A stretch of DNA of 64,000 nucleotides from an uncultured Actinomycetes bacterium. Its GTDB lineage: Bacteria > Actinomycetota > Acidimicrobiia > IMCC26256 > BP-133. The stretch's first letter is position 1. Each line of letters opens with the position of its first letter. This document shows, in pieces, positions 10,959 to 26,667 of the stretch. Where the stretch lies: the NCBI GenBank assembly GCA_963789165.1, contig CAWBJP010000003.1, positions 518,625 through 582,624 on the forward strand. The letters are read 5' to 3'. The position numbers and the translations under genes are program-made. Under the pieces are notes generated by a model, which saw only the letters and a list, made by a program, of their open reading frames with translations, was not told where the DNA came from and ran no database searches.

Positions 10959-12329
10959 TCACCCCCGCGGCTTGTTGCGCCGCTCGAACGCCTTCATCAG
11001 CCCAGCGACGTCCATGATGCCGTAGCCATAGTCGTAGTCGTACCCGCCGCCGTTGCGATCGTCGGCGGTCCGCTGCAGCAACGTCCGCACCTGCCCGGGG
11101 CTGAGGGTCCGGGGCGGGAACAGGGTACGGATGGCGGCCACCACCCCGGCGGCCACGGGACAGGCCGCCGACGTTCCCGAGTCCGGCTTCCCGGGAAACG
11201 CCTCCGACCCGGTGAAGTGGGTGTAGGTGCACACGTCCGGCTTGCGCTGGTCCAGCCGCCCGGGACCCTGCGACGAGTAGCCCACCCGCTCGCCGGTGAC
11301 GTCGACGCCGCCAACGGAGAGCACCCCCGGATGCGAGTTGGCGCCGCCGATGGGACGGTCGGGGTACTCACAGCGCCCGTCGGGGCAGTCCCGCCCGCAG
11401 TTCCCGGCGGCGAAGACAATGTCGGCCCCCGCCGCCTCGAGGCTCGAGACGATGACGTTGAACGGGTGGGCCCGGCTGTCCGAGTAGTTCCCCGGGGCGC
11501 CCGGCGGGAAATCCCACCCCGGCGAGAAGGACCCCCAGCTGTTGGTCACCACCAGGGCCCGGCCCTCCTCGGGCATGGCGTCGAGGACGGCCCGGAGGTG
11601 GGCATAGGCCGCCACGGCGTCAGAGAGGAGCCCCTCCATAGCGTTCGCCCCCTGGCGCCCGGAGAGCAGCACGGCCATGTCGAGCACGGTCGCCTCGGGG
11701 GCGGCGATCAAAGCGTCGAAGCCACACATCGTCCCGTGGTCGACCTTGTGGGCCCCCGGCGTCGTTCCGACTCCGCTCGGGGTCCAGCTGCGGGCGGCGT
11801 CGAAAGCGAAACTCCGGCCAAGGTGGGCTTCGACGTGGGCCACGTTGACCCCCGAGTCGACTACCGCTAGGGCCACCCCCGCGCCGGTGAAACCAGCCCC
11901 GTGCAGCTCCGAGAGGTGGAGCTCGCCGGCCACGTCGTGCCAGTCCCCCACCGCCGGGCTGTCGCCGCAGGTGGGACACGACCCGATGGTGGGGTCGGCG
12001 AAGATCCCGACGATGTCAGGCCGGGAGCCGCTGAGCAGGGCCAGGCGACTAGCGAGGTTGTCGTCGGCGATCTCGCCCCGCACCAGAACGCCCGCTTCCT
12101 GTGGCTCGAAGGAGAAGGTCAGCTCCTGTTCCAAGGACAGCGGATCGCCACGCGGGTCCACGGGCCGGGGCCGGGGGACGGGCACCGGGGGATAGCCCGG
12201 GTCGATCCGGAACCCCGGCAGGTCCCCGGCGACGGCCTCCGGGCCGGGCGGCGCCACCGCTCCCCTCGTCGCCCGCACGGCGGCCTCGACGACGTCGGGT
12301 GCCGGTCGCATCTGAATGAGGACTCGCAT
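10959..12329 (-). CDS. S8-family (subtilisin-like) serine peptidase without a recognisable signal peptide
   Basis: Catalytic triad contexts: LAVVDSGVN (Asp), DHGTMCG (His), SGTSAACPVAAGVVAAI (Ser). ATG 12329 follows gaggggg. The N-terminus is not hydrophobic. Confidence 0.9.
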   Translation of the reverse strand: MRVLIQMRPAPDVVEAAVRATRGAVAPPGPEAVAGDLPGFRIDPGYPPVPVPRPRPVDPRGDPLSLEQELTFSFEPQEAGVLVRGEIADDNLASRLALLSGSRPDIVGIFADPTIGSCPTCGDSPAVGDWHDVAGELHLSELHGAGFTGAGVALAVVDSGVNVAHVEAHLGRSFAFDAARSWTPSGVGTTPGAHKVDHGTMCGFDALIAAPEATVLDMAVLLSGRQGANAMEGLLSDAVAAYAHLRAVLDAMPEEGRALVVTNSWGSFSPGWDFPPGAPGNYSDSRAHPFNVIVSSLEAAGADIVFAAGNCGRDCPDGRCEYPDRPIGGANSHPGVLSVGGVDVTGERVGYSSQGPGRLDQRKPDVCTYTHFTGSEAFPGKPDSGTSAACPVAAGVVAAIRTLFPPRTLSPGQVRTLLQRTADDRNGGGYDYDYGYGIMDVAGLMKAFERRNKPRG

Positions 12330-12589
12330 CTGGACCCCCTCGTGGCTGGCTCGGGACGAATCCCGCCCCCGGTGTTCCACCTGGAGGAGCGGCGCACTGC
12401 GCCGACCTCGCGGCCTCTAAATCCATACTACTTTTTCGAAGTTCTAGGAAGTATCGTGCTTGTGACGTACGGAACGCCGGCTTCGACACACTCGATACGG
12501 CTTGCCCGTCAATGAAGTACCGCCTTGCAGGGGCGAGGGTGACCCGGGAGCATTGCGACAGCGTGGATCGCTGACCCTTGGAGCGTGTC

Positions 12590-13627
12590 ATGGGCGGCAT
12601 CTTCATCAACTACAGGCGTAACGACTCCGAGTACATCGCGGGCCGGCTCCGAAACGACCTCTCCCGGCGGTTCGGCACCGATTTCCTGATTTTCCGCGAC
12701 GTCGACTCCTTGGCGCTCGGACGCTTCGCGGAGGAGATCGACCAGGCGGTCCGGTCCTGCGACGTGATGGTCGTGGTGATCGGTGACGGTTGGCTCGATG
12801 CCCGCGATGCCTCGGGCAAAAAGCGCCTGGACCAGCCCGACGACTGGGTCCGGCAGGAGATCGCCGCCGGCCTTAGACAGAAGAAGATTCTGGTCCCGGT
12901 ACTGGTCGAGAACGCCCGCCTGCCTTCGGCCCACGAGCTACCGCTGGAGATAGCGGAGCTGGTCGACCAGCAGGCCGTGGAGCTTCCCGACTCCCGGTGG
13001 GATTACGAGGTGGAACAACTGGTCGGAAAGCTGGAGCGGTCGCTCCGGTCGAGAAACCTCTTGCCCTCGGATCAACAGCAGGAATTGCCGGCTCCACCCC
13101 TGCGGGATTCCACCAGGAGGTCTGGGCCCAAATGGGCCTTGGCAATCATCCCCGTCGTTCTTGCCGCCGGTGTGTTCGCCATAGTCCGCTCGAGCGGCTC
13201 CGGCTCGGAGTGCACACGCGACCGAACTCCGGCGCCAGGGCGGACGACTGTTGCCTCCCGTCAGACGGACCGGTCATATACCGGCCCATGGTCGGTGACC
13301 TGCGGTCCCCTCACGCTCACCATCGAGAAGATCGAAACCTCCGCCAGCGCCACCCGGGTTCATGCCCGGGTGGACAACGAGACGGACGACACCCTGATCC
13401 TTTCCGCCAGTCAGTTCAACATGGTCGATGACAACGGACACAGCTATCGAGCGAATCCGTTCTCGAGCGAATGGCCCAAAGACATTCCCCCCGGTGTGCT
13501 CCGCGGGATCGTCGATGTCGTGGAGCCGCTCCGGCCGGAGGCGACAAGTATCAGCGCGGGGTGGGGCACCGTGTTCGGGACCTTCGCGGTCGACCAGATC
13601 TTCGTCGAGGGCATCGGGCTGCGGTAG
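12590..13627 (+). CDS. Membrane-anchored TIR-domain protein with a C-terminal DUF4352-like beta-sandwich
   Basis: N-terminus MGGIFINYRRNDSEYIAGRL...VMVVVIGDGWL...DDWVRQEIAAGL (TIR_2-type motifs including the conserved Glu). TM helix WALAIIPVVLAAGVFAIV. C-terminal LTIEKIETSASATRVHARVDNETDDTLILSASQFNMVDDNGHSY. Confidence 0.85.
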   Translation: MGGIFINYRRNDSEYIAGRLRNDLSRRFGTDFLIFRDVDSLALGRFAEEIDQAVRSCDVMVVVIGDGWLDARDASGKKRLDQPDDWVRQEIAAGLRQKKILVPVLVENARLPSAHELPLEIAELVDQQAVELPDSRWDYEVEQLVGKLERSLRSRNLLPSDQQQELPAPPLRDSTRRSGPKWALAIIPVVLAAGVFAIVRSSGSGSECTRDRTPAPGRTTVASRQTDRSYTGPWSVTCGPLTLTIEKIETSASATRVHARVDNETDDTLILSASQFNMVDDNGHSYRANPFSSEWPKDIPPGVLRGIVDVVEPLRPEATSISAGWGTVFGTFAVDQIFVEGIGLR

Positions 13628-13636
13628 GCGACCGGA

Positions 13637-14173
13637 GTGATCATCGTGCATGCGGGCAATCGAATCGATCCGCCGGGAAGAGTCCCGCCCCGCTTTCCCG
13701 CCCATCGGGAACGGGCGGTCGGGGCCAGGATGGTGGAGCTACTCCAGATTCTCGAGCCCGCAGGCATTGTCAGCGCGGCGGCCGCCGGTGCCGACCTCCT
13801 GTTGGCCGAAGCGGCTCTGGATCGGGCGGTACCCCTCCACGTCGTCCTCCCCTGCCCTCGAGCCCGCTTCCAGGAGGTGTCGGTCGCGGATCAAGGCCCG
13901 CGTTGGGTTCTCGCCTTCGAGCGGGTCCTGAACCATGTCGCCCAAGACACCCGGTCCTCGTTGGAGGAGTTGACGCTCGAGCCGGACGACGCCGGCTTCC
14001 GCATGGCCAACCAGGTGCTGCTGGATCGGGCGGTCAACCTCGGCGCCGACCGGGTACTGGCCGTGGCCGTCCGCCCGAGACAGAGGGAGTCCACGCCGAG
14101 CGTGACCGATGACTTCGTCGACCGCGCCGAGGCGGCCGGATTCTTCGTACTGGAGATCGATCCCGGGCACTGA
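13637..14173 (+). CDS. SLOG/LOG-like Rossmannoid domain protein (tentative)
   Basis: HAGNRIDPPGRVPPRFP...IVSAAAAGADLLLAEAALDRAVPLHVVLPCPRARFQEVSV resembles the N-terminal module of DUF4071/TRAFs-binding-type proteins. The gene starts 10 nt after the TIR stop and ends 40 nt before the CHAT gene. The start could be GTG 13637 or GTG 13646. Confidence 0.5.
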   Translation: MIIVHAGNRIDPPGRVPPRFPAHRERAVGARMVELLQILEPAGIVSAAAAGADLLLAEAALDRAVPLHVVLPCPRARFQEVSVADQGPRWVLAFERVLNHVAQDTRSSLEELTLEPDDAGFRMANQVLLDRAVNLGADRVLAVAVRPRQRESTPSVTDDFVDRAEAAGFFVLEIDPGH

Positions 14174-14213
14174 GCGCAAACGTCCAGCAGGTCAGCCGGA
14201 AGGGGGACCCAAG

Positions 14214-17200
14214 ATGGCGGAGTCCGAGAGCGGGCCCGGCGTCCAAGGCATCTCACTGGCAGGCGAAGGCGTCCGATTCGCCGCGGATCGTGGAGTCGCC
14301 GCCGACACCCGGTCGGACGGCGTCACCGTTGATCCCGTGGCCGCCACCATCAACGCCACCGATGGCTTGCGTATCGCTGAGGCCATCACCATTCGAAACC
14401 TCGAGGTGACCGGGGGCGGCGGTCGAGGTGACGCGCGTGAGGGTGCGCTGGTTGTGGATGTCGGGCGGGCAGAGCCGGGTGAACGACCCGTTGTTCTCGT
14501 CGAAGAGGACGGCCGCTACACCTGGGTCGTTCCCGCCCCAGGCCAGGAACGTCTCCGGTTGCCGGTGGAAGCCGCTCCTGGAAGCCGGGGGCTGGCCGGC
14601 TGGGCTGTTCGCCGCGTGCTTCGCGTGGTGGCCGTGAAGACCGTGGGCTGGGCGGTGCACGAGGCGACGCGGACGATCGTCGGCGGCTGGGACGAACGGC
14701 GCCACCCGCACCGCCTCCGCGCCTGGACGCCCGAGAACCACCGCGACCCCAATGCCCCACCTCCCGACATGCAAGCTCTGGGGGCCGGACCAGCTCTGCT
14801 TGTCATCCACGGGTTCATGGGGTCCGTCCACGGGTCCTTCGGCGACCTGGCGGCTGACGTAGTGCGCGGGTTCCACCGGGCGTATCGCGGCCGCACATTC
14901 GCCTTCGACCACCCGACCCTGGCGGTCTCCCCAAGGAAGAACGCCAAGTGGCTCGCCCAGCAGCTCAGCAGCGAGGGCGTTCCCCTGGTCCTCGATGTCG
15001 TCGCCCACTCGCGGGGCGGGCTCGTCGCCCGCGAGCTGGCTCAGCGACTGAGCGGAGATGGCGTCACGGTGCAGTCGATCACGTTCGTAGCCACCCCGAA
15101 TGACGGCACCCCTCTGGCCGACCCGAAGCGACCCGAGGGGCTTCTCGACGCTCTCACCAACCTGGCTGGCGCAGTGCCGGGCAGCGATGCCCTCCAACTC
15201 GTCTTGGAACTCTTGAAAGACATCGTGGTGGGGTCAGCCTTCACCGGCCTCAAGGGGCTGGTGGCCATGGAGCCGGGCGGGGCCTACCTCAGCGAGCTCA
15301 ATGCTCTACCCGTCCCGGAGGGCTTGGAGCTCCGGGCCATCGCGGCTGACTTCGAACCCCGCAGCGACGCCGGGATCGTCCGGACCGCACACGACCGTTT
15401 GATCGACGCCTACTTCGGTGGGCTTCGCAATGACCTCATCGTTCCCACGCTGAGCACGATCGTGACGAGCGGCGCCTTCGGTGTCCGTGCCGGCCACCGC
15501 CTCGTCCTCGACAGCAGCCGCGGGGTGGACCACAGCTCGTTCTGGACCAACCCCAGGGCCGTAGGCCAGCTCGCCGATTGGCTGCGCCCGGACTGGCGTG
15601 AGCGTCCCCCGGACGAGGTACCTGACGAGGAGACGGACCCCGGAGCCGAGATGGCGCTGCCCCCCGATCCCCGGAGGATCGAAGACGTGGCGGATGCCGT
15701 CAGCCGCCTCCCCGACAGGTCCCGCAAGGCGGTGGAGGAACTTGTCGGAGGCCCGATCAATGAACGGGCCCGCAGACCCACAGGCGACCGTCCAGCCGTG
15801 GTCGTCATCCCGGGAATCATGGGGACGCATCTGCGCCGCCGAGCCGGTGAGCTCATCTGGATCGATCCGTTGCGCCTGATGCGCGGCCACTTCAGTGACT
15901 TGTCCTTGGCACCGCCAGGGGCCGAGGTGGAGCCTGCGGGATTGAACCGCACGTATCTCCCCCTCATCACCCATCTCGCCGAAACGCGGGATGTCTACCT
16001 GGCTCCGTTCGACTGGCGCCTCGACATCCGGGACTCGGCGAACAAGCTGGCGAACCTGATCCAGGACCAGGTTCTCGTAGCCAACCCCACCCGGTCGGTG
16101 CATCTCGTAGCCCATTCGATGGGTGGCCTGGTGGGCCGGTCACTCACCTTCGTAGCTCCGGGCGTGTGGTCCGAAATGGGTGCTGAGCAGCGCGGAGACA
16201 GTGGTCGGCTGGTGATGCTGGGGACACCGAACCGAGGATCGTTTTCCATCGTGCTGACCCTCACGGGCGCAGAGATGATCTTGAAAGCCCTCGCCGCAGT
16301 CGACTTCCGTGCCGACACCAGACGGCTGCTCGAGGTCGTGGCCACCTTCCCGGGCGTGTATCAGATGCTTCCCTCCCTCAGCGTCGGGCCGGGCGACGAC
16401 CGGCACCGCGACCTGTTTACCGCCACCAACTGGGGCAGTCGGTCACCGGTTCAGCAGGCCCTTCTTTCCGATGCGGTCGAGTTCCACGCCGCCCTGGAAG
16501 AAGCGCACCGGAACCTGAGCGATACGGACCTCGCCCGCATGACGTCCGTCGCCGGGTACGGCGTCGCCACCCCTTATCGGCTGGAGATCACCGAACCCGG
16601 GTCGTTCAGCGTCGGTCGGGTGCTGAGGGGCGACGGCCGCGTGGCGATGGCTCTCAATCACCTCGACGGCGTGACCCGCTACTACTGCAAGGCATCCCAT
16701 GGTGCGCTGCCGTCGGCACCGGATGTCCTGGCCTCGCTCGGGGAACTGCTGGCCGGGAACCCTGGCCAGTTGGAGCGTGAGGCGCCCGAATCCCGAGGCG
16801 CCGAGGCCATGGACCGGCCGCCGATGATCCCCGTCGAACTCTTCGACTCGGTACCCACCGGCGGGACACGCTCCGGCGTCGCCGTCGTAGGCCGGCGCCA
16901 GGCGGAGGCGCGCCTGGTCGAGGCTCTCAGACCCTCGTTGGGCGGAGGCCTCGCCCCTCCCGAACGGGTGCAGGTCAAGGTCCGCGTGGTCCATGCCAGC
17001 CTCGAACAGGCCGATTTCCCGGTCGCTGTCGGTCATTACACGGGGGTCCCGGTCGACGGGTCGGAAGGGTTTCTCGACCGCAAGCTGTTGGGTGCCCTGC
17101 GCCAACGGCAGTACCTCGGGCAATATCCCGAACGGGCAGGGACGGCCGTGTACATCCCGGCCCCGCCTGGCCACCAGCCCCGGGGGGCGCTGATATTGGG

Positions 17201-19709
17201 CCTCGGGGAGTTCGGCACGTTGACGGGCGCCAACCTCTCCGAGGCAATGACCCAGGCTGTCATCGCCCTGGTCCTCGACCAGCGTGAGCGCGACCCGGAT
17301 CCGAGCGCTTCTGTGAGCATCGGCGTCTCATCGGTGCTCGTCGGGACACCCGGGCGTCACGGTCTGACCATCGAGAACGCCGTCACTTCACTGGTTGAGG
17401 GCGTGATCGAAGCCGTGGTCCGCCTTCGACGCCAGGACGAGCCCATTCCCCTGCGAACGGTCGAGCTCGAATTGATCGAGAGCTATCAGCAACCCGCGGA
17501 AGAGGCGGCGATGCTGCTGGCCGACCTGGACAGGCTGCTGGAGCCCGGCCTGCGGGACCAGGTCGACCTGCTGACCGTCGACCGCTTGGTCGCACGCGAG
17601 GGCCACCAGCCCGGCGCGCCGCCGGGACGTGAGTCGGGCGAGGCCTGGATCCGTGTGCTGGTAGGGCTCGAACGCGATGAGCAGGCGGCGGGGACTTCCT
17701 CGATCCGTCGTATGACCTTCTCGACGCTCGCCCGCGGGGCCCAGGCCAACCTGATTTCACACGACGTCGACCTGGAGAAGATTCGGGCCTACGTCGACGC
17801 CGCCGTCCGACGCCCAGAACAGGATCCGGCCATCAACCGGACGCTGTTCGAACTGCTCTTTCCGCCCCGGGCCAAGCTGGACCTCGACCGGTCGGAGCAC
17901 CTCCACCTCATCGTGGACGACGAGACGGCCCAGCTGCCGTGGGAGCTCCTGGCGGCGGCAGCCGTCGGTCGCGATGTTGCGCCTCTCGCCCTGCGGGCGG
18001 GCATGCTGCGGCAACTTCAGAGCCCGTCGCTCACGCGCTACCGAACAGGCTCTCCCCGGGGCCTGACGGCTCTGTTCGTCGGAGATCCGCCCACCAGCTA
18101 CCCCCGCCTGCCCAACGCCAGAGAAGAGGCTGAACGCTTGGCGACACTGTTTGAAGGGCGACGCTGGGAGGTGGAACGCCGCATCTACGGGGACGACCAC
18201 ACCGGCGACGCCGACGAGTGGATGGACGTCCTGAACGCCCTCCACCAGCGGGACTACCGCGTGGTGCACATCGCGGCCCACGGCGTGTTCGATGAGGACT
18301 GGCGGCGCAGCGGCGTCGCCATCGGGCCCCTCCCCGAGCACCGCCTGACCGCCCTCGAGTTCGAGGCCATGAGCTCCACCCCTGACCTCGTCTTCCTGAA
18401 TTGCTGCCATCTCGGCCGCCTGGGTTGGTTGCTCGATCAGGCCAAGGAGCCCGACGCCCGGGCCCTCGAGCGGCCACACCGGGTCGCCGGCACGGTCGCC
18501 CAGCAACTCCTCCGCAACGGGGTCGGGGCGGTGGTGGTAGCGGGTTGGGCCGTCGACGACTTCGCCGCCGCCGCCTTTGCCTCTGAGCTCTACGAATCGA
18601 TGCTCGGCGGCTATCCCTTCGGCGAGGCGGTGCGCAAGGCCCGCATCGCCGCTCACAAAGCCGACGATGGCCGTTCAAACACGTGGGGGGCGTACCAGTG
18701 TTACGGCGACCCGGACTTCGAGATGTTGGCCCGGGACGTCCCGCCCACGACGCGGCCCGCACCCGTGAGCGCGGCGCAGCTGGCCCGAGACCTGCGACTG
18801 GCCGCCATCCGGGCCAGTGAAGCGACAACGGTCGAGCACACCAGGCAGGTGGCGAGAGAGGTCAACGGGCTGCGGGTGGCCGGGGGGGACCTGGTCAACG
18901 ACGGCCGGGTGCTGGAAGAGCTGGGTGACGCCTTCAGCGAGCTCGGTCACTATGAGCAGGCCGTGGAGGCCTATGAGCAGGCCCTGCGCGAGGAGAAGGG
19001 CGAGGTCCGGATCAGGACGGCCGAACAGCTCGCGAACCTGAAGGCCCGCCTCGCGGTCAACCTGGCCCGAAAGCCGGACGGGTCCGCGGATGCCCGCCGG
19101 CTTTTTGCCGAGGCCAGCTCGATGCTCGACCTTCTCGACCGTCTCGCCGGGAACACGGCCGAACGCCACGCCTTGCGAGGCAGCCTGGAGAAGAAGCGGG
19201 CCACCACCGTGGAAGGCGAGCAACGCGCCAAAGCCCTCATCACGGCCCGCGCCGCGTACCTGACGGCCCGTCAGCTCAGCTCGCCTGACCGCCACGCGTG
19301 GCTGGTCCCGTACCACACCAACCTCTGGCTGCAGCTCGTCATCCTGACCAGCGAATCCGCTGCCCTCGCGGAAGAAGAATCAGGCTGGCTGGATGCGCTC
19401 CACCACCAGGTCGCCGAGCAAGCGAGCACTCCGTCCAACTATTGGGAGCTGGCGGCACTGGCCGACACGCTGCTGACCTATCTCCTGGCCGACCGGCCCA
19501 CCACTCGAGGTTCGGTGTCCGCCGAAGAGGTGAAGACGAGCTATCTGAAGGCCTTCGAGCTTCGTTCCACCGTGCGCCAACGCGATTCTGCCCTCACCCA
19601 CCTTCACGATCTCAGCCTGCTCGTGCCGTTCGAGAGAGCGCAGCCGTACGTCACCCTGTTGGAAAGCCTGAGAAGGGTCTTCCCCGATGAGGAAGGTGCC
19701 GGGCGATGA
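14214..19709 (+). CDS. 1831-aa multi-effector protein: two alpha/beta-hydrolase (lipase/PGAP1/LCAT-like) modules + CHAT caspase-like protease + C-terminal helical-repeat (TPR/DUF4071-like) region
   Basis: ATG 14214 follows ggaaggggga. Hydrolase 1: LLVIHGFMGS...LDVVAHSRGGLVAREL. Hydrolase 2: VVVIPGIMGTHL...VHLVAHSMGGLVGRSL. CHAT dyad: YRVVHIAAHGVF ... DLVFLNCCHLG. C-terminus contains LGDAFSELGHYEQAVEAYEQALRE and further helices. Confidence 0.9.
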   Translation: MAESESGPGVQGISLAGEGVRFAADRGVAADTRSDGVTVDPVAATINATDGLRIAEAITIRNLEVTGGGGRGDAREGALVVDVGRAEPGERPVVLVEEDGRYTWVVPAPGQERLRLPVEAAPGSRGLAGWAVRRVLRVVAVKTVGWAVHEATRTIVGGWDERRHPHRLRAWTPENHRDPNAPPPDMQALGAGPALLVIHGFMGSVHGSFGDLAADVVRGFHRAYRGRTFAFDHPTLAVSPRKNAKWLAQQLSSEGVPLVLDVVAHSRGGLVARELAQRLSGDGVTVQSITFVATPNDGTPLADPKRPEGLLDALTNLAGAVPGSDALQLVLELLKDIVVGSAFTGLKGLVAMEPGGAYLSELNALPVPEGLELRAIAADFEPRSDAGIVRTAHDRLIDAYFGGLRNDLIVPTLSTIVTSGAFGVRAGHRLVLDSSRGVDHSSFWTNPRAVGQLADWLRPDWRERPPDEVPDEETDPGAEMALPPDPRRIEDVADAVSRLPDRSRKAVEELVGGPINERARRPTGDRPAVVVIPGIMGTHLRRRAGELIWIDPLRLMRGHFSDLSLAPPGAEVEPAGLNRTYLPLITHLAETRDVYLAPFDWRLDIRDSANKLANLIQDQVLVANPTRSVHLVAHSMGGLVGRSLTFVAPGVWSEMGAEQRGDSGRLVMLGTPNRGSFSIVLTLTGAEMILKALAAVDFRADTRRLLEVVATFPGVYQMLPSLSVGPGDDRHRDLFTATNWGSRSPVQQALLSDAVEFHAALEEAHRNLSDTDLARMTSVAGYGVATPYRLEITEPGSFSVGRVLRGDGRVAMALNHLDGVTRYYCKASHGALPSAPDVLASLGELLAGNPGQLEREAPESRGAEAMDRPPMIPVELFDSVPTGGTRSGVAVVGRRQAEARLVEALRPSLGGGLAPPERVQVKVRVVHASLEQADFPVAVGHYTGVPVDGSEGFLDRKLLGALRQRQYLGQYPERAGTAVYIPAPPGHQPRGALILGLGEFGTLTGANLSEAMTQAVIALVLDQRERDPDPSASVSIGVSSVLVGTPGRHGLTIENAVTSLVEGVIEAVVRLRRQDEPIPLRTVELELIESYQQPAEEAAMLLADLDRLLEPGLRDQVDLLTVDRLVAREGHQPGAPPGRESGEAWIRVLVGLERDEQAAGTSSIRRMTFSTLARGAQANLISHDVDLEKIRAYVDAAVRRPEQDPAINRTLFELLFPPRAKLDLDRSEHLHLIVDDETAQLPWELLAAAAVGRDVAPLALRAGMLRQLQSPSLTRYRTGSPRGLTALFVGDPPTSYPRLPNAREEAERLATLFEGRRWEVERRIYGDDHTGDADEWMDVLNALHQRDYRVVHIAAHGVFDEDWRRSGVAIGPLPEHRLTALEFEAMSSTPDLVFLNCCHLGRLGWLLDQAKEPDARALERPHRVAGTVAQQLLRNGVGAVVVAGWAVDDFAAAAFASELYESMLGGYPFGEAVRKARIAAHKADDGRSNTWGAYQCYGDPDFEMLARDVPPTTRPAPVSAAQLARDLRLAAIRASEATTVEHTRQVAREVNGLRVAGGDLVNDGRVLEELGDAFSELGHYEQAVEAYEQALREEKGEVRIRTAEQLANLKARLAVNLARKPDGSADARRLFAEASSMLDLLDRLAGNTAERHALRGSLEKKRATTVEGEQRAKALITARAAYLTARQLSSPDRHAWLVPYHTNLWLQLVILTSESAALAEEESGWLDALHHQVAEQASTPSNYWELAALADTLLTYLLADRPTTRGSVSAEEVKTSYLKAFELRSTVRQRDSALTHLHDLSLLVPFERAQPYVTLLESLRRVFPDEEGAGR

Positions 19710-20764
19710 CCATGCAGCTCTTCCTGAGCCACTCGACTCGTGACCGAACCATCGCCGAGGCGGTCAAGGTACTGGTTGAGGACCTGTTCGGGACGGACCG
19801 GGTTCAGGTGGAATTCTCTTCCGATCAGCAAGCTGGCGGCGGCATCCCGCCCGGCGCGCAGTGGCTCCCATGGATCACTGAGCGCATCACGCGAGCCGAC
19901 AAGACCTACGTGCTCATCACGCCGAACTCGACGAAGAAGCCCTGGGTCCTGTGGGAGTCGGGGGCGGCCGCCGGTGTCGCTCTGGCAACCCACAGATCGA
20001 GCCCCGTCGTCCCCATCACGTTCGGCATCGCAGACGCCGACATCCCGAGCCCTCTCCTGGCCAATCAGCGGGTGCGGGGTGACACCGATGAGGCCGACGG
20101 CATCACCCGGTTGCTCCAGGACCTCAACCTTGCCGTTGGTGCCCCACTGACCACCAAGGCCTTCGCTTCAACCATCGACGAGTGCCTCCCCGATTTCTTT
20201 GCCAAGATCAAGATGGCCCTCGGTCAATCCTCACCCGCAGAAAGCCTGCTCGCCTCGGTACCCCACAGCTTCTCCGCCGAAGCGCTGGGCGGCTTCTGGG
20301 TCACCTGCTACCAGTTCGCTTCGAGCCAGGGCCTGGGGTGCCATGCCGACATCGCGCAGCTCACCCCGGAATCGGATCGACGGGTGAGAGCCAGGAACTG
20401 CCCGCCTGAGCCCCGAACCGACGGTCACCGCACGCCGTTCCGGAACGAGATCGAGGCCGAGTTGGCCAACCGGCACCTCATCGGTTATTGGAAGAACGTC
20501 AGCGACACCCGGTACTTCGGGACAGTTCACCTCGCCGTCCTCCCTGGCGAGACCGTGATGGACGGCTACTACACCAGCTTCACAAGCGACGTCGAGGCCG
20601 GCACCGGGCACTGGAGGTGGGTCCTCCTCGACCCCGAGTCGCTTCCGGGTGTCGATCTCACCCGCATGGCGTTGCGGGAGCCAGCCGTGATCCACGAACT
20701 GCTTCTGGCGCACTCCAAGCACGCCGGGCCGATCAAGTTGGCCGATGTGGCGGAGGCCATCTAG
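19706..20764 (+). CDS. TIR-like domain protein with an uncharacterised ~180-aa C-terminal domain
   Basis: The ATG overlaps the CHAT stop (ATGA at 19706-19709). MQLFLSHSTRDRTIAEAVKVLVEDL...YVLITPNSTKKPWVLWESGAAAG (TIR-like beta-A motif and W..E glutamate). I do not recognise the C-terminal half. Confidence 0.7.
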   Translation: MTMQLFLSHSTRDRTIAEAVKVLVEDLFGTDRVQVEFSSDQQAGGGIPPGAQWLPWITERITRADKTYVLITPNSTKKPWVLWESGAAAGVALATHRSSPVVPITFGIADADIPSPLLANQRVRGDTDEADGITRLLQDLNLAVGAPLTTKAFASTIDECLPDFFAKIKMALGQSSPAESLLASVPHSFSAEALGGFWVTCYQFASSQGLGCHADIAQLTPESDRRVRARNCPPEPRTDGHRTPFRNEIEAELANRHLIGYWKNVSDTRYFGTVHLAVLPGETVMDGYYTSFTSDVEAGTGHWRWVLLDPESLPGVDLTRMALREPAVIHELLLAHSKHAGPIKLADVAEAI

Positions 20765-21154
20765 GTGGGAATCACCAGGCAGGAGGCCGGCGACGTCGTC
20801 AACCTCTACATCCAGGCGTGGGTCGGGCAGGATCCCGATCTGATCGTGACCATCTTCACCCCTTCGGCCACCTATCACGAGCGCGTGCTCGACACTCCGA
20901 TCCGAGAACGCGAAGGGATCCGGGCGTACTGGCAGGCGAAGGTCGTCGAGTCGCAACGCAACATCGAATGCGACCTGCTGAACCTGTATCTCGACGGGGC
21001 TACCGCCATTGTCGAATGGGAGGCCCGTTTCGACGACCTGGTTGCGAAGGAGCGGAAACGGATGCGAGAGGTGGCGATCCTCGTCTTCGAGGGCCAACTG
21101 ATCGCCAGCCTCCGCGAATACTGGTCCTCGGAGCGGATCGCCGACCTGTCCTAA
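20765..21154 (+). CDS. NTF2-like / SnoaL-like fold protein
   Basis: GTG start immediately after the TAG of the preceding gene. VVNLYIQAWVGQDPDLIVTIFTPSATYHE...IRAYWQ...YLDGATAIVEWEARF...VAILVFEGQLIASLREYW is typical of the SnoaL/NTF2 pattern. Confidence 0.7.
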   Translation: MGITRQEAGDVVNLYIQAWVGQDPDLIVTIFTPSATYHERVLDTPIREREGIRAYWQAKVVESQRNIECDLLNLYLDGATAIVEWEARFDDLVAKERKRMREVAILVFEGQLIASLREYWSSERIADLS

Positions 21155-21306
21155 CTCGTATACGCGAGCGGAACGACTTTCAAGTTTCCGTAGACATTAT
21201 GGCATTCTTCGCTAAAGTTAGGCGTAGTTGACGCTCTACCTCGAGCGGGCGCCGAGGGACGAAGGTGCGACGTGCATCCCCTCGTTCGAAAGCGAAGGGA
21301 GCAGCG

Positions 21307-22170
21307 ATGTCGCGCGGATGGTCAATCCATATCGGCCTCAACTCCGTCGATCCTGACAGTTACGAGGGTTGGGCGGGCCCGCTCTCGGCCTGCGAGTTCG
21401 ACGCTGGCGACATGGCCGTCCTTGCTGAAAGCCAGGGCTTTGAAACCAGGACGATCCTCACTCGCGAAGCCACCGCAATCAACGTCATCGGAGCACTCCA
21501 ACAGGCCGCGGCCGTACTTCAGGATGGCGACATTCTCTTCCTCTCCTACTCCGGGCATGGTGGCCAGGTCGACGACGCGAACGGCGACGAGAAGGACCTG
21601 CGGGATGAGACCTGGGTCCTCTATGACCGACAGCTTCTCGATGACGAGCTCTACGACCTGTGGAGCAGATTCCGTCCTGGTGTTCGGATCGTCGTCGTCT
21701 CCGACTCCTGCCACAGCGGGACGGTAGTGAGGGGGATTCCCGATTACCTCCAGGCCTCGGTCCTTCAGGCCCGCTACGGGGGGATGACGGTGGAGGATGT
21801 TGACCGAGGCACCAAGGCCATGCCCGAGAAGATCAGCAGGAGCGTCAACAACGCCCACCGCGACCTATACGACGGCATCCAGAGAGCCCTCAAGACGAGG
21901 GATGGGGCCGCAATAGGGGCCGGCGTGCTCCTCATCTCCGGATGCATGGACAACCAACTCTCAGCGGATGGGGAGCGCAACGGAAGGTTCACCGAAGAGC
22001 TTCTCCGGGTGTGGAACACCGGCAAGTTCGAAGGGTCGTACCGCTCCTTGCACAAGACAATCCTCATGGGCATGCCGCCAGACCAGTCCCCGAACCTTCT
22101 TCCCGTCGGTACTGCCAACCCGGAGTTCGAACAGCAACGACCCTTCAGTATCGAGCTCTTCCCACGGTGA
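21307..22170 (+). CDS. Caspase-family (peptidase C14, metacaspase-like) cysteine protease
   Basis: ATG 21307 follows gaaggga. His context ILFLSYSGHGGQV and Cys context IVVVSDSCHSGT. Confidence 0.9.
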   Translation: MSRGWSIHIGLNSVDPDSYEGWAGPLSACEFDAGDMAVLAESQGFETRTILTREATAINVIGALQQAAAVLQDGDILFLSYSGHGGQVDDANGDEKDLRDETWVLYDRQLLDDELYDLWSRFRPGVRIVVVSDSCHSGTVVRGIPDYLQASVLQARYGGMTVEDVDRGTKAMPEKISRSVNNAHRDLYDGIQRALKTRDGAAIGAGVLLISGCMDNQLSADGERNGRFTEELLRVWNTGKFEGSYRSLHKTILMGMPPDQSPNLLPVGTANPEFEQQRPFSIELFPR

Positions 22171-22709
22171 GCACCCCGACCATTCCAGAGGACGTCGAGC
22201 CGACCGAACGGATCGAGGTGTTCTTGTCCTACGCGCATGAGGACCAGGAGTTTCGCGGCCAGCTTGCCGCGCACCTCAGTCAATTAGAACAGAACGGCGA
22301 TATCAAAGCCTGGTCAGACCGTGAAATTGCGCCCGGTGCCAATTGGGATCGAGAAATTGACGTTCACGTGCTGACGGCGCACGTGATTCTTCCTCTGCTC
22401 AGCCGACACTTTATGGCGTCGCGTTATTGTTTCTCGGAAGAACTACGTATCGCAAAGAAGCGACACGAAGCCGAAGAAACTCGTCTAATTCCCATATTGA
22501 TTCGTCCAGTTGCCCTCGTCGGAGTGCTGATGCAGCTTCAGATGCTGCCCTCCTGTCCTGACGGAAGCGAACTACTCCCCGTGAGTGCATGGCCCGACGT
22601 CGACAACGCATGGACGCAGGTCACCGACCGAATAATCGAGGCGGTGGCCAGCGTGCGCAAGCAGCGGCAACAGAAATCTCCAAAGGTCTGGGGCAGCGGT
22701 TCGGGATAG
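22167..22709 (+). CDS. TIR-domain protein
   Basis: GTG 22167 overlaps the caspase stop (GTGA). IEVFLSYAHEDQEFRGQLAAHL...WSDREIAPGANWDREI...ILPLLSRHFMASRYCFSEELRIA (TIR_2 motifs including the conserved Glu). Confidence 0.85.
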   Translation: MSTPTIPEDVEPTERIEVFLSYAHEDQEFRGQLAAHLSQLEQNGDIKAWSDREIAPGANWDREIDVHVLTAHVILPLLSRHFMASRYCFSEELRIAKKRHEAEETRLIPILIRPVALVGVLMQLQMLPSCPDGSELLPVSAWPDVDNAWTQVTDRIIEAVASVRKQRQQKSPKVWGSGSG

Positions 22710-22716
22710 AGAGAGG

Positions 22717-23334
22717 TTGTTCGGCCGACAGGACCTTTTGGACGATCTTTGGTATCGCTACAAAGACCTGACTCAATCCAATATCCAAGTACTGGTCGGC
22801 TCTTCAGGGCTCGGTAAAAGCACCGTCGCTGCGCAGTACGCCTGGACACATCGTCCTGACTACGAAGTCGTGTGGTGGATCAACGCAAGCGACCCGACTC
22901 AACTCGAAGCCTCCTACGTTGCCCTCGCGGAAGCCCTGGGATCCGCGACACTGAGGGGCGATGCCGCCAAGGAGGTAGTGAAGGAACGACTCAAGGAAAC
23001 CGGAGCGCTTCTGATCTTCGACAACGCGCGGGACCCACGACACATTGAGTCGTTCCTCCCACACCAGCCTCGTAGCCATGTGCTCGTCACATCGCAGGGC
23101 GGTAATTGGCCGGAGCTTGGATACGTCACATCTTTTCAGGCCCTTACTCAGGCCGAGGTCGAGCACGTCCTGCGTGAGGCTGCAGATATGGACGACCAGG
23201 ATCTAGTCCCCGAGCTCGCCCGCCACCTTCAAGGCGACCCGTTGGCGGTAAAGACCGCTGTCGCCCGGCTGCGGTCCGGGGAGAGCGCATGGTCCTACCT
23301 TCGCAAGCTTCAGCAATGGGCAAAAGGGCAGTGA
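22717..23334 (+). CDS. NB-ARC-type STAND P-loop NTPase module (no sensor or winged-helix part in this frame)
   Basis: TTG 22717 follows gagagagg, 7 nt after the TIR stop. FGRQDLLDDL...VLVGSSGLGKSTVAAQYA (Walker A), ALLIFDNARD (Walker B), HVLVTSQ, GDPLAVKTAVARL. Confidence 0.85.
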   Translation: MFGRQDLLDDLWYRYKDLTQSNIQVLVGSSGLGKSTVAAQYAWTHRPDYEVVWWINASDPTQLEASYVALAEALGSATLRGDAAKEVVKERLKETGALLIFDNARDPRHIESFLPHQPRSHVLVTSQGGNWPELGYVTSFQALTQAEVEHVLREAADMDDQDLVPELARHLQGDPLAVKTAVARLRSGESAWSYLRKLQQWAKGQ

Positions 23335-26300
23335 CTTCTAGCGCCGGCGGCGTGACCGGTGGTTCGGTAACAACGGCAGCCGAGCTCGCTCTCGACGAGA
23401 TGAGCACCGATTCTGCCGAAGTCATGGAGTTGCTAAGCCTTCTCGCCTTCTTCGCCCCGGACAGCGACATCCCCGGGCTCGTCCTCCTTGACGGTGCCAC
23501 CGCGCTCGAAGCAGATGCATGCAAACCAATTTCCTCTCCGCTCGCTCTCAACGACGCGATGTCCACTCTCGTCGCATGGGGGCTGGCAGAAGTTGACGGT
23601 GTCAGCCTGGTCATCCATGAGCGGATCCAGATCGCCGTGCGGGCGCGCCTCGGCTCCGATCAACAGCGCCGAACCGCGGAAGCCGCGGGTCTCGTCATAG
23701 CGTCGACCTATCCAGACCATCCCGATGCCATTCGGAACTGGCCCAAGGCCGGGTTGCTGCTCTCGCATGCTCTCGGGCTCATCGATCACCTTGAACGGCT
23801 TCGAAGTAAATCGGAAGTCCTTCCCCGGTTGCTCGACCGAGTCGGCCTCCATTTTATGGGCCTCGGACGACTGCAGGATGCCCTCCGGCTTCTCGAGCAG
23901 GCACAAGCAACTGTGTTCCTGGTCCACGGCGCTGGAAGCGACCTCGATGCTTGCGTCCAGCGCCACCTGGGCACGGTCCTTCGGGAGGCGGGCCGGCTCA
24001 GAGAATCAGAGTTGTTACTCCAAAGAGCGCTGGCGAAGGACACAGATCGAGACGGGGCTGATTCTCCGTCCGTAGCATTGGACCTCCGAGAGCTGGGCCA
24101 GACACTGGCCCGCCACAAGGGCTATCTCGAAGCACGAAAGCATCTGGCCAAAGCGCTTCAGATCCACGAGACTTTCGAGCCCGACGGGTTCGAGGTCGCC
24201 GCCGATCTTGATGCGCTATTTGAGGTGTTCGCCCTCCGAGGCGACATCGCCGAAGCGCGCAGCGTTCTCGAACGGGCTTTGTCCATCCGCGAGAAGCTCT
24301 TCGGTCATGACGACGTCGACACAATCATGACTCGCGTTGCCTTGGAGGTATTTCGTGGACTCTTGGTCGAGGGTTGGTCGAACACCTCTGCCATCGAACG
24401 GTACGTAGCGCAATCGGAACAGACGTTCGGCCTATCTCACCCTCGAGTCGCGGAGGTCTACGAACTGGTGTCGGATGCGGCTGCGAACCGGCAGGATTGG
24501 GAAGCTGCGCAGACGTATCTCGAACGGTCTCTAGAGGTCAACAAGTCCGCATACGGTCGTACGCATCCGCGCATCATCAGCAACCTATTCCGGCTCTTCA
24601 GAACAGCCTTGGCTCTGGGGCAAATTCAACGGGCCGGGGCGTTAACTGAGGAAGCGATCGGCATCCTGAAAGAGGTGCGGCCAGAGGATCTTGAAGCGAC
24701 GATCGCCCAAGCTGACGTCGCCACCGCTCTTTCGCCGTTGTCAGAGCTGGACCCTTCGGCCCGTCCGGCAGCCCGTACCGGCCTGGAACGATCGCTTGAG
24801 ATGCTTCGGCATGAACTGCCCGCCGCGCGCACGACAGAGATCGATCTCCTAGAGGTGCTGGCCCAGCTGGCGGTCGACCAGGGTGAACGCAATCTGGAAA
24901 AGGATCTCTTGAGCGAGGCTCTGGAAATCGTCCGCTCGACAGATATGTCAGAGCTGGAGGAGGCTCGCCTGCTGAGCAAGATGGCCGCGGGCGAGGAATC
25001 GCCTGCCAAGGCACTCCTCTTATGGACACGGGTTCTCGAGGTGGAGCGTCGCGAGCTCGGCCCCGATCACTATCGCCTCTTTACCACGTACTCATCCTTG
25101 TGGCCTCTGCTCCTAACGCTGAACCGGGTGCACGAGGCCCGAAGCGCCCTCGAGGAGGGCATCCGGATCGCTGGAAAAACATTCGGGCCCGACCATTGGC
25201 TGCTCGAGCAGATGCACGAGGCGCAGTCAGTCCTCAGCGCCTACGGCGGCGACATGGCCTCTGCGGTGGACGCGAGGCGCAAGGCCTTGGCTGCGGCAGA
25301 GAGCAATCCCAATTCTGATCAGGCGACCCTGGTGGTGCGGTTGATGCAGCTGGCCGAGACGCTCCAAGTCATCGGTGGATGGGAAGAGGCGCTAGAGCTC
25401 CTCCATCGGGGCCTGGAGATCCAAAAGGATGCGAAGCTCGACGAAGGACTTCGAGGGACCCTGCATCTCCGGCTAGCCGATTCGCTCATCCACGAAGGCG
25501 ACTACTCAGCAGCCCTGGCCAGCCTCAAAGAAGCTGCTCGGGTCGTAGAGATTGGGGAGGCCCGCCAAGACGCGGTGGAAGAAGCTGGCGCCTTGAGTCC
25601 CGGTCGCGAACAGATCGTCGAGGGATGGTCCAATCTCGGGGACGCCCTGCTCGCCAGTGGCCAGCCCTCGCTGGCGATCGAGCGTTACCAACTCGGGTTG
25701 CAAGCGGCGGCCCTGACTGAGACGCCTCTCGATGATGCGCAACTTCATGTCCGGCTTGCAGTCTTGGCCGGTATTCATCAGCAGGACGACTCGGCGAAGA
25801 ATCATCTGGAAAGAGCGCTTAAATTCATTCAAGCGGCTCAAATGCCCGGACCTCTGTGGGGCCTTTTGATCTCTTGCTCACGGGTCATGGCTCTCACGGA
25901 GCCACCCCAGGCAATTTTGCGACTCATACGAGAACTGGTCAGGTCTAGCTCGGGAGCGATGATGGACTTTCGTGGCAAACTCACGGGGGGCGTGCCTGAT
26001 GGATGGTTTGCGAAGGAGTCCCTCACTTTCGTTGCACCAGACGGCCAGGCGAACGTGATCGCTTCGAGTGAGCCACTCGACGAAACGATCAGGTCTGAGG
26101 AGTATGCGCAAATTCAAGGCGATCTTCTGCAAAGCGAATTTCCGGAGTATGCCGAACTCTCTTTTGAACCCGCTCACGTCTTTGGCCGAGCCGGATTCGT
26201 CCGCTATTTCCGTTGGACTCCTCCAGATGGCGTCTCAGTAACCCAGATCCAGTTCTACCACGCCGATACTGGACGAGGCTTTACTGCCACAGCGACTACA

Positions 26301-26396
26301 CCGACGATTAACTTTGATTCGGTTGGCGGTCTACTTCGCCTCGTGCTGGATGCACTCGTCATCGGCGATGACGCCGCCGCCGTGAACGTCTCGTGA
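23289..26396 (+). CDS. Continuation of the STAND NTPase: winged-helix segment + long TPR array + C-terminal DUF1795/DcrB-like domain
   Basis: This frame overlaps the NB-ARC ORF by 46 nt. MELLSLLAFFAPDSDIPGLVLL is a typical NB-ARC WH segment. Many TPR_10/12-like repeats follow (LGTVLREAGRLRESELLLQRALA ...). The tail reads GVPDGWFAKESLTFVAPDGQANVIASSEPLDETIRSEEYAQIQGDLLQSEFPEYAEL. The true N-terminus probably lies in the previous ORF. Confidence 0.85.
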   Translation: MVLPSQASAMGKRAVTSSAGGVTGGSVTTAAELALDEMSTDSAEVMELLSLLAFFAPDSDIPGLVLLDGATALEADACKPISSPLALNDAMSTLVAWGLAEVDGVSLVIHERIQIAVRARLGSDQQRRTAEAAGLVIASTYPDHPDAIRNWPKAGLLLSHALGLIDHLERLRSKSEVLPRLLDRVGLHFMGLGRLQDALRLLEQAQATVFLVHGAGSDLDACVQRHLGTVLREAGRLRESELLLQRALAKDTDRDGADSPSVALDLRELGQTLARHKGYLEARKHLAKALQIHETFEPDGFEVAADLDALFEVFALRGDIAEARSVLERALSIREKLFGHDDVDTIMTRVALEVFRGLLVEGWSNTSAIERYVAQSEQTFGLSHPRVAEVYELVSDAAANRQDWEAAQTYLERSLEVNKSAYGRTHPRIISNLFRLFRTALALGQIQRAGALTEEAIGILKEVRPEDLEATIAQADVATALSPLSELDPSARPAARTGLERSLEMLRHELPAARTTEIDLLEVLAQLAVDQGERNLEKDLLSEALEIVRSTDMSELEEARLLSKMAAGEESPAKALLLWTRVLEVERRELGPDHYRLFTTYSSLWPLLLTLNRVHEARSALEEGIRIAGKTFGPDHWLLEQMHEAQSVLSAYGGDMASAVDARRKALAAAESNPNSDQATLVVRLMQLAETLQVIGGWEEALELLHRGLEIQKDAKLDEGLRGTLHLRLADSLIHEGDYSAALASLKEAARVVEIGEARQDAVEEAGALSPGREQIVEGWSNLGDALLASGQPSLAIERYQLGLQAAALTETPLDDAQLHVRLAVLAGIHQQDDSAKNHLERALKFIQAAQMPGPLWGLLISCSRVMALTEPPQAILRLIRELVRSSSGAMMDFRGKLTGGVPDGWFAKESLTFVAPDGQANVIASSEPLDETIRSEEYAQIQGDLLQSEFPEYAELSFEPAHVFGRAGFVRYFRWTPPDGVSVTQIQFYHADTGRGFTATATTPTINFDSVGGLLRLVLDALVIGDDAAAVNVS

Positions 26397-26421: not shown

Positions 26422-26471
26422 CCGTGGGCGATACTGGTTTCGAACCAGTGGCCTCTGCCGTGTGAAGGCAG
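26422..26471. repeat. Distal att-type direct repeat: 50-bp copy of the 3' part of tRNA-Val
   Basis: ccgtgggcgatactggtttcgaaccagtggcctctgccgtgtgaaggcag is identical to 38450..38499. It lacks the 5' half of the tRNA. Confidence 0.85.
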
Positions 26472-26667
26472 ATCGGAGCTTCGCCCCGTCTGCCCTCACC
26501 TCTTGAAAGGGCCGGTCAGGCGGCATTTCGTGTGACCGGCAGTGTCCACCATGACCGGTGGTTTTCGGTCCTTCCGCGGGGCATCCGCGGGGCGTCGGGG
26601 GATCACTCCCGGGATCAGTGGGAGTCGGCGCATCGACCCGCTTCGATGACGACTAGGCGGGTGGCGC

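Follow-up and report, generated by a model that had tools for sequence, protein, structure and literature searches.

Which function can be ascribed to a bacterial protein of 1831 amino acids (aa) that combines two lipase-type domains with a caspase-like protease? The question is raised by the gene at positions 14214..19709 of the stretch analysed here, which comprises 64,000 nucleotides (nt) of contig CAWBJP010000003.1 from an uncultured Actinomycetes bacterium at ~69% G+C (hereafter, the window). All coordinates refer to the window, with features on the + strand unless marked (−); the protein is called the giant, and its homologues are numbered as loci (L) or proteins (P). The gene lies in a five-gene operon with gaps of 9, 40, −4 and 0 nt, which encodes, in this order, a TIR protein with a transmembrane (TM) helix, a SLOG-like protein, the giant, a second TIR protein and a SnoaL-like protein. 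Because of its domain set and of this operon with two TIR genes and a SLOG-like gene, the giant is most likely the cell-killing arm of a Thoeris-like system not yet characterised, and we consider it on balance probable that it serves, in the cytoplasm, as executioner in a conflict system that is linked to TIR and belongs to the TPR-S class, probably in anti-phage abortive infection. A first-pass annotation, made from the sequence alone, had described the hydrolase and CHAT modules and the helical tail, and its interpretation was supported wherever it could be checked by computation; the flanking TIR genes, the N-terminal β-domain and the identity of the middle domain were missing from it.

The giant gene and its family

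The longest open reading frame (ORF) found on the + strand in a scan of the window spans 14109..19709. Within it, the ATG at 14214 is directly preceded by GGAAGGGGGA, and this start is backed by the homologues, in which M1 is nearly invariant (alignment A1), resulting in a protein of 1831 aa. The ORF of this length with a good ribosome-binding site that had been proposed initially was thus recovered intact. The G+C content at third codon positions (GC3) is 0.81, similar to that of neighbouring genes. The protein collection holds one identical protein and 237 relatives, many of which are 1,800–2,200 aa long and cover 94–100% of the giant at 27–73% identity. In view of the ORF, its start, the GC3 value and these full-length relatives, the gene is real and uninterrupted and encodes a single conserved polypeptide. 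Length and domain order are the same in homologues 26–74% identical to the giant, so the modules belong to one chain, as originally supposed, and are not always separate genes. The protein contains neither a signal peptide nor a TM helix, which supports a cytoplasmic location.

Clustering at 90% identity yields at least 238 clusters for the family, which occurs in 134 GTDB species or more. A scan of the GTDB species representatives confirmed 134 relatives, the best 80 of which were taken as loci and span Proteobacteria, Bacteroidota, Acidobacteriota, Planctomycetota, Nitrospirota and Mycolicibacterium. The architecture, shared by hundreds of database entries across many phyla, is not rare. Scans of the giant with PADLOC (2023) and NCBIfam (2026) yielded no model match and at most trivial sub-threshold matches, and a sequence search of the full-length protein against the PDB returned just designed TPRs and one marginal LCAT match. 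A promoter and terminator scan gave nothing informative. A literature search for DUF7379, the Pfam family of the first hydrolase, retrieved no paper, and we found neither a paper describing the giant architecture nor an experimental study of the family. The giant gene hence belongs to a widespread family, and its architecture is new as a described effector.

Domain architecture of the giant

AlphaFold2 models were analysed for residues 1–960 and 901–1831, with predicted local distance difference test (pLDDT) values of 83.8 and 87.2, respectively, and conservation was assessed in two 48-sequence alignments at 26–74% identity. From N- to C-terminus, the giant comprises a β-rich domain, hydrolase 1, hydrolase 2, a domain resembling the N-terminal domain of leucyl aminopeptidases (LAP-N-like), a CHAT protease and a TPR-S tail. 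All eight catalytic residues, namely two Ser-Asp-His triads and the His/Cys dyad of CHAT, are invariant in the 48 sequences. The N-terminal β-rich domain (aa 1–175; 14214..14738) was recognised in the AlphaFold2 model, has just a sub-threshold Pfam match to DUF7362 and is conserved, as judged by BLAST, in the closest homologues only.

Hydrolase 1 (aa ~190–460; 14781..15593) was assigned to DUF7379 by Pfam (residues 195–363, E 6e-51) and shows lipase fold matches, the triad S266/D407/H440 and the oxyanion segment H199-G200, all of these residues being invariant. Hydrolase 2 (aa ~525–860; 15786..16793) is LCAT/LPLA2-like, with Pfam matches to LCAT (3.6e-5) and PGAP1 (7.4e-8) at residues ~590–730, a PGIMG motif and the equally invariant triad S635/D807/H829. 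The model of residues 1–960 matched lysosomal phospholipase A2 (LPLA2; 4x90) in Foldseek with 6.8e-9, and probabilities of 1.00 were obtained for LPLA2, LCAT, the family-I lipases of Proteus and Pseudomonas, and the type VI secretion system (T6SS) lipase Tle4 (4r1d). In a viral structure library, the same model matched phospholipases and LCAT-family proteins from large DNA viruses.

Both GxSxG nucleophile elbows reported in the first-pass annotation are present, AHSRGG with S266 (nt 15009–15011) and AHSMGG with S635 (nt 16116–16118). Their placement at around residues 300 and 650 is only roughly right; counting from 14109 gives residues 301 and 670, and counting from the ATG at 14214 gives 266 and 635. 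The (V/I)HG(F/I)MG strand said to precede each elbow is found before the first (LLVIHGFMGS), whereas the second reads VVVIPGIMGT, with PG instead of HG. According to the AlphaFold2 models, the Foldseek matches and the invariant triads, both regions are lipase-type α/β-hydrolases, as had been suggested, and lipolytic activity is predicted. They share the capped α/β-fold, the AHSMGG/AHSRGG elbow and the Ser-Asp-His triad with LCAT/LPLA2, family-I lipases and Tle4, at a sequence identity of just 14–19%. Unlike any of these, the giant carries two tandem copies inside a cytoplasmic signalling protein.

The middle domain (aa ~918–1125; 16965..17588), which had been noted as separate and of unknown function, does exist and is now recognised as Peptidase_M17_N-like by both structure and profile. 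Foldseek matched it to LAPs and to TTHA0132 (2dx6; target-normalised TM-score 0.70), its profile retrieved the LAP 3jru_B from the PDB (E 3.9e-4), and 11 of 24 members match Peptidase_M17_N (PF02789). It is a candidate ligand-binding or oligomerisation module. An assignment as a true ADP-ribose-binding Macro domain was considered and not adopted, as the nearest relatives form the LAP N-terminal branch of the macro fold. The conserved motifs of the domain bear a likeness, by eye only, to the ADP-ribose-binding loops of Macro domains.

The CHAT caspase-like protease (aa ~1146–1500; 17649..18713) was detected by Pfam (PF12770) at residues 1209–1499 with E 1.3e-32 and 113.9 bits, well above the cutoff of 24. 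The His/Cys dyad already recognised in the sequence corresponds to H1356 (HIAAHG) and C1398 (NCCH), both invariant, and the best structural match of the region is Csx29 (8eex_B; Foldseek 7.6e-7). Csx29, the TPR-CHAT component of the type III-E Craspase, is a protease that cleaves a partner protein, Csx30. It resembles the giant in bearing TPR and CHAT in one polypeptide and, presumably, in that the protease is kept inactive until a signal comes. It differs in that its TPR is N-terminal, in its docking as a protein on gRAMP/Cas7-11, and in the lack of lipase modules and of a TPR-S-type repeat. Membership of the giant in a Craspase was rejected, given that no CRISPR-like array was detected in the window and no cas gene was found among the window ORFs scanned with Pfam.

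The TPR-S tail and the SLOG-like protein

The ~330-aa helical-repeat tail of the first-pass annotation is present in the AlphaFold2 model at aa ~1520–1825 (18771..19688). Pfam assigned TPR and TPR-S to residues 1554–1693, with TPR-S (PF20308) itself at 1580–1693; the latter scored 35.4 bits (1.6e-8) with the tail alone and 32.0 bits with the full protein, against a cutoff of 27.6. In Foldseek, the tail matched the central regulatory region of ASK1 (MAP3K5; 5ulm_B) with 5.2e-4 over 315 columns at a target-normalised TM-score of 0.55, and the two superpose, although the giant possesses neither the kinase nor the PH domain. The tail had been called DUF4071-like, and this call holds because of the match to the ASK1 region, which is DUF4071 and the best TPR fold match, even though the Pfam name is TPR-S. 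Bacterial relatives of the tail match PF13281 (MAP3K_TRAF_bd, DUF4071) directly, whereas a Pfam hmmscan of the giant's own sequence, as full protein or as tail, gave no PF13281 match.

The gene directly upstream of the giant encodes the SLOG-like protein of 178 aa (13637..14173). The source gene call for this copy (P0122) has 147 aa, and the homologues support the 178-aa ORF. The protein itself gave no Pfam match, a Pfam model for its family does not exist, and the family profile retrieved nothing significant from the PDB. At the family level, weak matches to YAcAr/YspA SLOG were obtained for 7 of 38 members (best E 0.0024) and to DprA for 3 of 38. The AAAGADLLxxEAA motif of the family resembles, by eye, the glycine-rich motif of SLOG/DprA.

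A profile search collected 3,917 cluster representatives of the 178-aa family, mostly of ~180 aa, among which a class of ~600–660 aa recurs that carries the SLOG-like domain N-terminally. TPR-S was found at aa ~400–545 in seven of the eight long proteins tested, one also matching MAP3K_TRAF_bd. When the giant's tail was aligned with the C-termini of these fusions using hhalign, they proved homologous (98.8%, E 8.7e-17, 261 columns); BLASTP was not significant, so that the relation is visible at the profile level only. Proteins with the reverse order, TPR-S followed by the SLOG-like domain, directly adjoin giant homologues in L036 and L082. The earlier suspicion that SLOG-like and DUF4071 modules are fused elsewhere was therefore borne out. 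As the two modules are fused in other proteins and lie side by side here, the SLOG-like protein and the giant's tail probably act together.

Two further contexts of the 178-aa family were observed. In L008, it adjoins a SLATT_1/SLATT_3 gene pair. In L007, a family member stands beside separate caspase, LCAT-like and TPR-S genes, in what looks like a "split" giant.

TIR partners and related loci

The operon begins with the receptor-like TIR-TM protein of 349 aa (12578..13627; Pfam TIR_2 9.7e-12), the true start of which may be the ATG at codon 5. An N-terminal TIR_2 domain is followed by one TM helix at aa ~186–204 (…PKWALAIIPVVLAAGVFAIV…), identified as a hydrophobic window, and by a ~140-aa C-terminal domain that is predicted to lie outside the cytoplasm and weakly matches DUF5643. 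This topology of TIR, TM helix and C-terminal domain is Toll-like-receptor-like. TIRs of the same family and topology adjoin giant homologues in L006 (14616–15665), L083 (7768–8988) and L026 (4398–5396), and those of Hydrogenophaga (L006), L083 and a Ginsengibacter contig are homologous to the upstream TIR of the window with the same TM topology. The TIR-TM family thus partners giants in Actinomycetota, Betaproteobacteria and Bacteroidota.

The second TIR protein (352 aa; 19706..20764; Pfam TIR_2 1.1e-9), whose gene shares its first 4 nt with the end of the giant gene, has a ~200-aa C-terminal domain without assignment and gave PADLOC matches to TIR-TM and ThsB-like models. BLASTP detected no similarity between it and the downstream TIR of Hydrogenophaga, the homologue of which is the upstream TIR of the window. 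As read from the sequence, both flanking TIRs retain a Glu at the catalytic position, the candidate in the upstream protein being that of DDWVRQE.

For the neighbour counts, hidden Markov models (HMMs) for TIR, caspase and SLOG-like proteins were run on 83 loci with giant homologues, and the zone within 4 kb of the giant (534 kb in total) was compared with that at 4–10 kb (507 kb in total). TIRs gave 19 hits in 17 loci in the near zone, caspases 16 hits in 14 loci and SLOG-like proteins five hits in five loci; each of the three gave a single hit in the distant zone. The association of TIR, caspase and SLOG-like genes with the giant is real but partial.

Individual loci illustrate this association. 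In L001 (P0002), where the giant is 73% identical, a 178-aa homologue with 79% identity lies upstream and a patatin-TIR gene overlaps the giant's stop. L004 (P0013) contains a TIR-WD40 gene, a 178-aa homologue (61% identical), another gene and then the giant. In the Hydrogenophaga locus (giant 28% identical), a caspase and an amidase gene lie upstream and a 349-aa TIR overlaps the giant's stop; such an overlap is thus found in the window, L001 and L006. Of the 14 caspase loci, several lack a TIR, and in most a caspase of ~300 aa is encoded no more than 100 nt ahead of the giant.

The domain content also varies, as seen in these five loci and in P0020–P0029. L014, L015, L016, L017 and L076 encode proteins of ~930–985 aa with the LAP-N-like-CHAT core only and no hydrolases; in L015, L016 and L076, BLAST additionally reveals a TPR-S tail. 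Other variants carry one hydrolase, and there are ~2,200-aa forms with an extra N-terminal metallo-β-lactamase domain. Because the hydrolases range from zero to two copies across loci, LAP-N-like-CHAT can be regarded as a constant chassis and the hydrolases as a variable payload. With two TIRs, a SLOG-like gene and a caspase, the window locus is an unusually complete version.

Relation to known TIR systems

Several TIR systems resemble the locus. According to a Thoeris survey (bioRxiv 10.64898/2025.12.03.692087), the type VIII effector ThsI consists of a CMP (cytidine monophosphate) hydrolase and a TPR, is triggered specifically by TIR-made canonical cyclic ADP-ribose (cADPR), and has a TPR for which a role in TIR signalling had been predicted by Burroughs & Aravind; its introduction also states that the SLOG domain of ThsA binds 3'cADPR. 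For BcTpr, which has the same architecture as ThsI, cADPR binding is reported at a Kd of 1.9 µM (bioRxiv 10.1101/2023.05.26.542521), and the Tpr-centred assemblies of Burroughs and Aravind comprise TIR, YspA (SLOG), patatin, calcineurin-type and caspase neighbours, as summarised in the same preprint. More generally, bacterial conflict systems are known to use α/β-hydrolases, caspases and TIR as effector modules (PMC8195603).

In type VIII Thoeris (ThsB TIR plus ThsI), in BcTir/BcTpr and in the window, a TIR gene adjoins that of an effector with a TPR-S/ASK1-type TPR. The window is likewise comparable to the SLOG (YspA)-, patatin- and caspase-containing neighbourhoods described for the TPR-S class (Burroughs & Aravind 2020, as summarised in the BcTir/BcTpr preprint). 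The messenger logic of type VIII Thoeris and BcTir, in which a TIR produces cADPR and this acts on the effector, would apply to the window by analogy. ThsI and BcTpr have ~415 aa with an N-terminal MilB-like CMP-hydrolase/N-glycosidase domain, whereas in the giant TPR-S forms the C-terminal tail of an 1831-aa chain that also contains the two lipase-type hydrolases, CHAT and the LAP-N-like domain. A further difference is that the SLOG-like module is a separate gene. A MilB-like CMP-hydrolase was absent from the giant in the Pfam and NCBIfam scans and from the 50 best Foldseek matches of each model.

Type IV Thoeris pairs a TIR with the caspase-like ThsE, a caspase-superfamily protease that degrades cellular proteins, and uses N7-cADPR. 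The window similarly combines TIR with a caspase-superfamily protease, and a Peptidase_C14 caspase is also encoded 1.5 kb downstream; unlike ThsE, the protease of the giant is a CHAT domain inside a multi-enzyme protein, and no Thoeris model of PADLOC or NCBIfam matches it. As in Thoeris systems, TIR genes share the operon of the effector, and here they stand on both sides of the giant, the first separated from it by the SLOG-like gene with gaps of 9 and 40 nt, the second overlapping it by 4 nt. Candidates for a domain that might read the TIR product are TPR-S in the giant, the adjacent SLOG-like protein (weak matches) and the LAP-N domain with its macro-type fold. The giant was assigned to neither type VIII nor type IV Thoeris, in view of the lack of a CMP-hydrolase and of a Thoeris model match. 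Our best reading is that the giant is a new effector with several enzymes, that it fits the TIR/TPR-S signalling class by context and tail, and that type VIII Thoeris is the nearest system.

Proposed function and rival explanations

As a cytoplasmic executioner, the giant could operate as follows. The flanking TIR proteins, one of them membrane-anchored and receptor-like, would act as sensors and turn NAD+ into an ADP-ribose-derived messenger. This would be read by a split sensor made up of the upstream SLOG-like protein and the giant's TPR-S tail, possibly with help from the LAP-N/macro-like domain. Reading of the messenger would release or activate the three hydrolytic centres of the polypeptide, possibly via autoprocessing at the low-confidence linkers at aa ~460–525 and ~860–920. 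The two Ser-Asp-His lipase/phospholipase-type domains would then attack the cell's own membrane lipids and the CHAT Cys-His protease its proteins, so that the infected cell would cease growth or die. The gene order, tight spacing, folds, invariant residues, distance-dependent co-occurrence and SLOG-TPR-S fusions underlying this scheme are observed; from these we infer that TIR signalling takes place, which ligand is read, what the enzymes act on, how they are activated and that the cell dies.

Several findings weigh against the scheme. TIR and effector are not consistently paired across the family: a TIR lies within 4 kb in just 17 of 83 loci, though strongly enriched over the 4–10 kb zone, any of TIR, caspase or SLOG-like genes in 28 of 83, and the giant stands alone on several long contigs (L002, L003 and L005). 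Some loci pair it with a caspase and no TIR, and therefore a TIR messenger is not the universal trigger of the family. Moreover, PADLOC and NCBIfam contain no model that matches the giant, the SLOG assignment stems from weak matches (best E 0.0024) and a motif read by eye, and the neighbourhood is no obvious defence island beyond the adjacent caspase/TIR/STAND cluster.

These points bear on the main rival, namely that the giant is an autonomous sensor-effector that detects a protein or peptide of phage or stress origin directly, through its TPR-S tail or its LAP-N-like domain, and not a TIR nucleotide. The TIR, caspase and SLOG-like proteins would then be optional co-effectors, or substrates cleaved by CHAT in a proteolytic cascade like that of Csx29 and Csx30. 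The structural proximity of CHAT to Csx29 is in keeping with such a cascade, as are the constancy of the LAP-N-like-CHAT core, usually with a TPR-S tail, next to hydrolases in zero to two copies, the roughly two thirds of homologue loci without a TIR, caspase or SLOG-like gene within 4 kb, and the caspases that closely precede the giant in most caspase loci, several of them TIR-free. We nevertheless regard an autonomous giant as rather unlikely, since homologues of its tail are fused to a SLOG-like domain of nucleotide-binding type, since this tail falls into a TPR class tied experimentally to cADPR sensing, and since the TIR genes of the window are translationally coupled to it. A developmental role seems improbable to us. 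In this reading, the giant would serve regulated self-destruction or remodelling in the life cycle of a filamentous actinomycete, for instance membrane turnover or the programmed death of hyphae, and TIR and caspase would be death effectors of development, not of phage defence. SARP, LAL and mycothiol genes mark the window as part of an actinomycete-type chromosome, and comparable TIR/caspase/α/β-hydrolase systems are reported to be enriched in multicellular prokaryotes (PMC7159879; PMC8195603); yet unicellular Proteobacteria, Bacteroidota, Planctomycetota and Acidobacteriota commonly carry the family as well, and its patchy, phylum-crossing distribution with variable accessory genes is typical of conflict systems.

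Finally, the presence of Tle4 among the structural matches could evoke a secreted or contact-delivered antibacterial Tle-like lipase toxin with an extra protease. This is very improbable: the giant contains no signal peptide or TM helix and no secretion-associated domain detectable by Pfam, no immunity-like or secretion genes were seen nearby among the scanned window ORFs, and the TIR, SLOG-like and caspase partners and the TPR-S tail are intracellular signalling modules. It was therefore rejected as the principal explanation.

The TIR-linked executioner may be taken one step further, to a new Thoeris type in which the receptor-shaped TIR, with its extracytoplasmic domain, TM helix and cytoplasmic TIR, senses an envelope cue. 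A split SLOG/TPR-S sensor would read its NAD-derived messenger and free the executioner with its three enzymes, two phospholipases and CHAT, possibly by CHAT autoprocessing that sets the lipase modules loose. We put this forward as a speculation that is rather unlikely to hold. If it were true, the split sensor would correspond, in bacteria, to the regulatory N-terminal half of the ASK1 signalosome. A locus with split SLOG and TPR-S modules bears on the bacterial origin proposed for the ASK signalosome (PMC8195603).

Should the executioner model apply, TIR/TPR-S signalling could drive an effector that hits membrane lipids and proteins together, with a lipase plus CHAT payload that the Thoeris survey (bioRxiv 10.64898/2025.12.03.692087) does not mention; CHAT is absent from the text and the examined table parts of that survey, and the SLOG-patatin configurations tested there conferred no defence in E. 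coli. The natural split of a SLOG-type domain and a TPR-S/ASK1-type tail offers a tractable system for how the two work together, and the conserved partner with TIR, TM helix and ectodomain is a hint that TIRs may signal through the bacterial membrane in the manner of receptors. Given the large size of the family, a single characterisation would annotate many giants currently termed "CHAT domain-containing".

Flanking genes of the window

The last gene of the operon, for a SnoaL-like (NTF2-fold) protein of 129 aa (20765..21154; Pfam SnoaL_2 1.5e-12), begins on the base after the stop of the second TIR gene. It does not recur near giant homologues in other loci, and whether it belongs to the system is uncertain. 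The Peptidase_C14 caspase of 301 aa (21265..22170; Pfam 1.2e-21) follows ~110 nt past it and is probably a separate transcription unit. An HMM of the giant-adjacent caspases retrieved it with E 8.9e-69, and it belongs to the same family.

This caspase opens a second cluster (21265–26396) with G+C ~0.60, which encodes the caspase, a TIR with a probable GTG start near 22167, a STAND nucleoside triphosphatase (NTPase; 22717–23334) and a TPR protein (23289–26396). The single NCBIfam model FxSxx_TPR matches the NTPase ORF with one part and the TPR ORF with the next, and therefore the gene is split by a frameshift, which reflects either a pseudogene or a sequencing error. The TIR ORF (frame 0) may likewise have formed a single gene with the NTPase ORF (frame 1) in the past. 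A tRNA-Val gene (26424–26501, −) directly follows this low-GC cluster, which fits a genomic island boundary.

On the opposite side of the operon, a subtilase gene (Peptidase_S8; 10959–12380, −) and the first TIR gene are transcribed divergently from either side of a 198-nt spacer. At a greater distance, a tandem repeat with a period of 126 bp (5.4 copies, 78% matches) occupies 56669–57408, inside an ORF (55251–57521, −) that probably encodes a repeat-domain protein.

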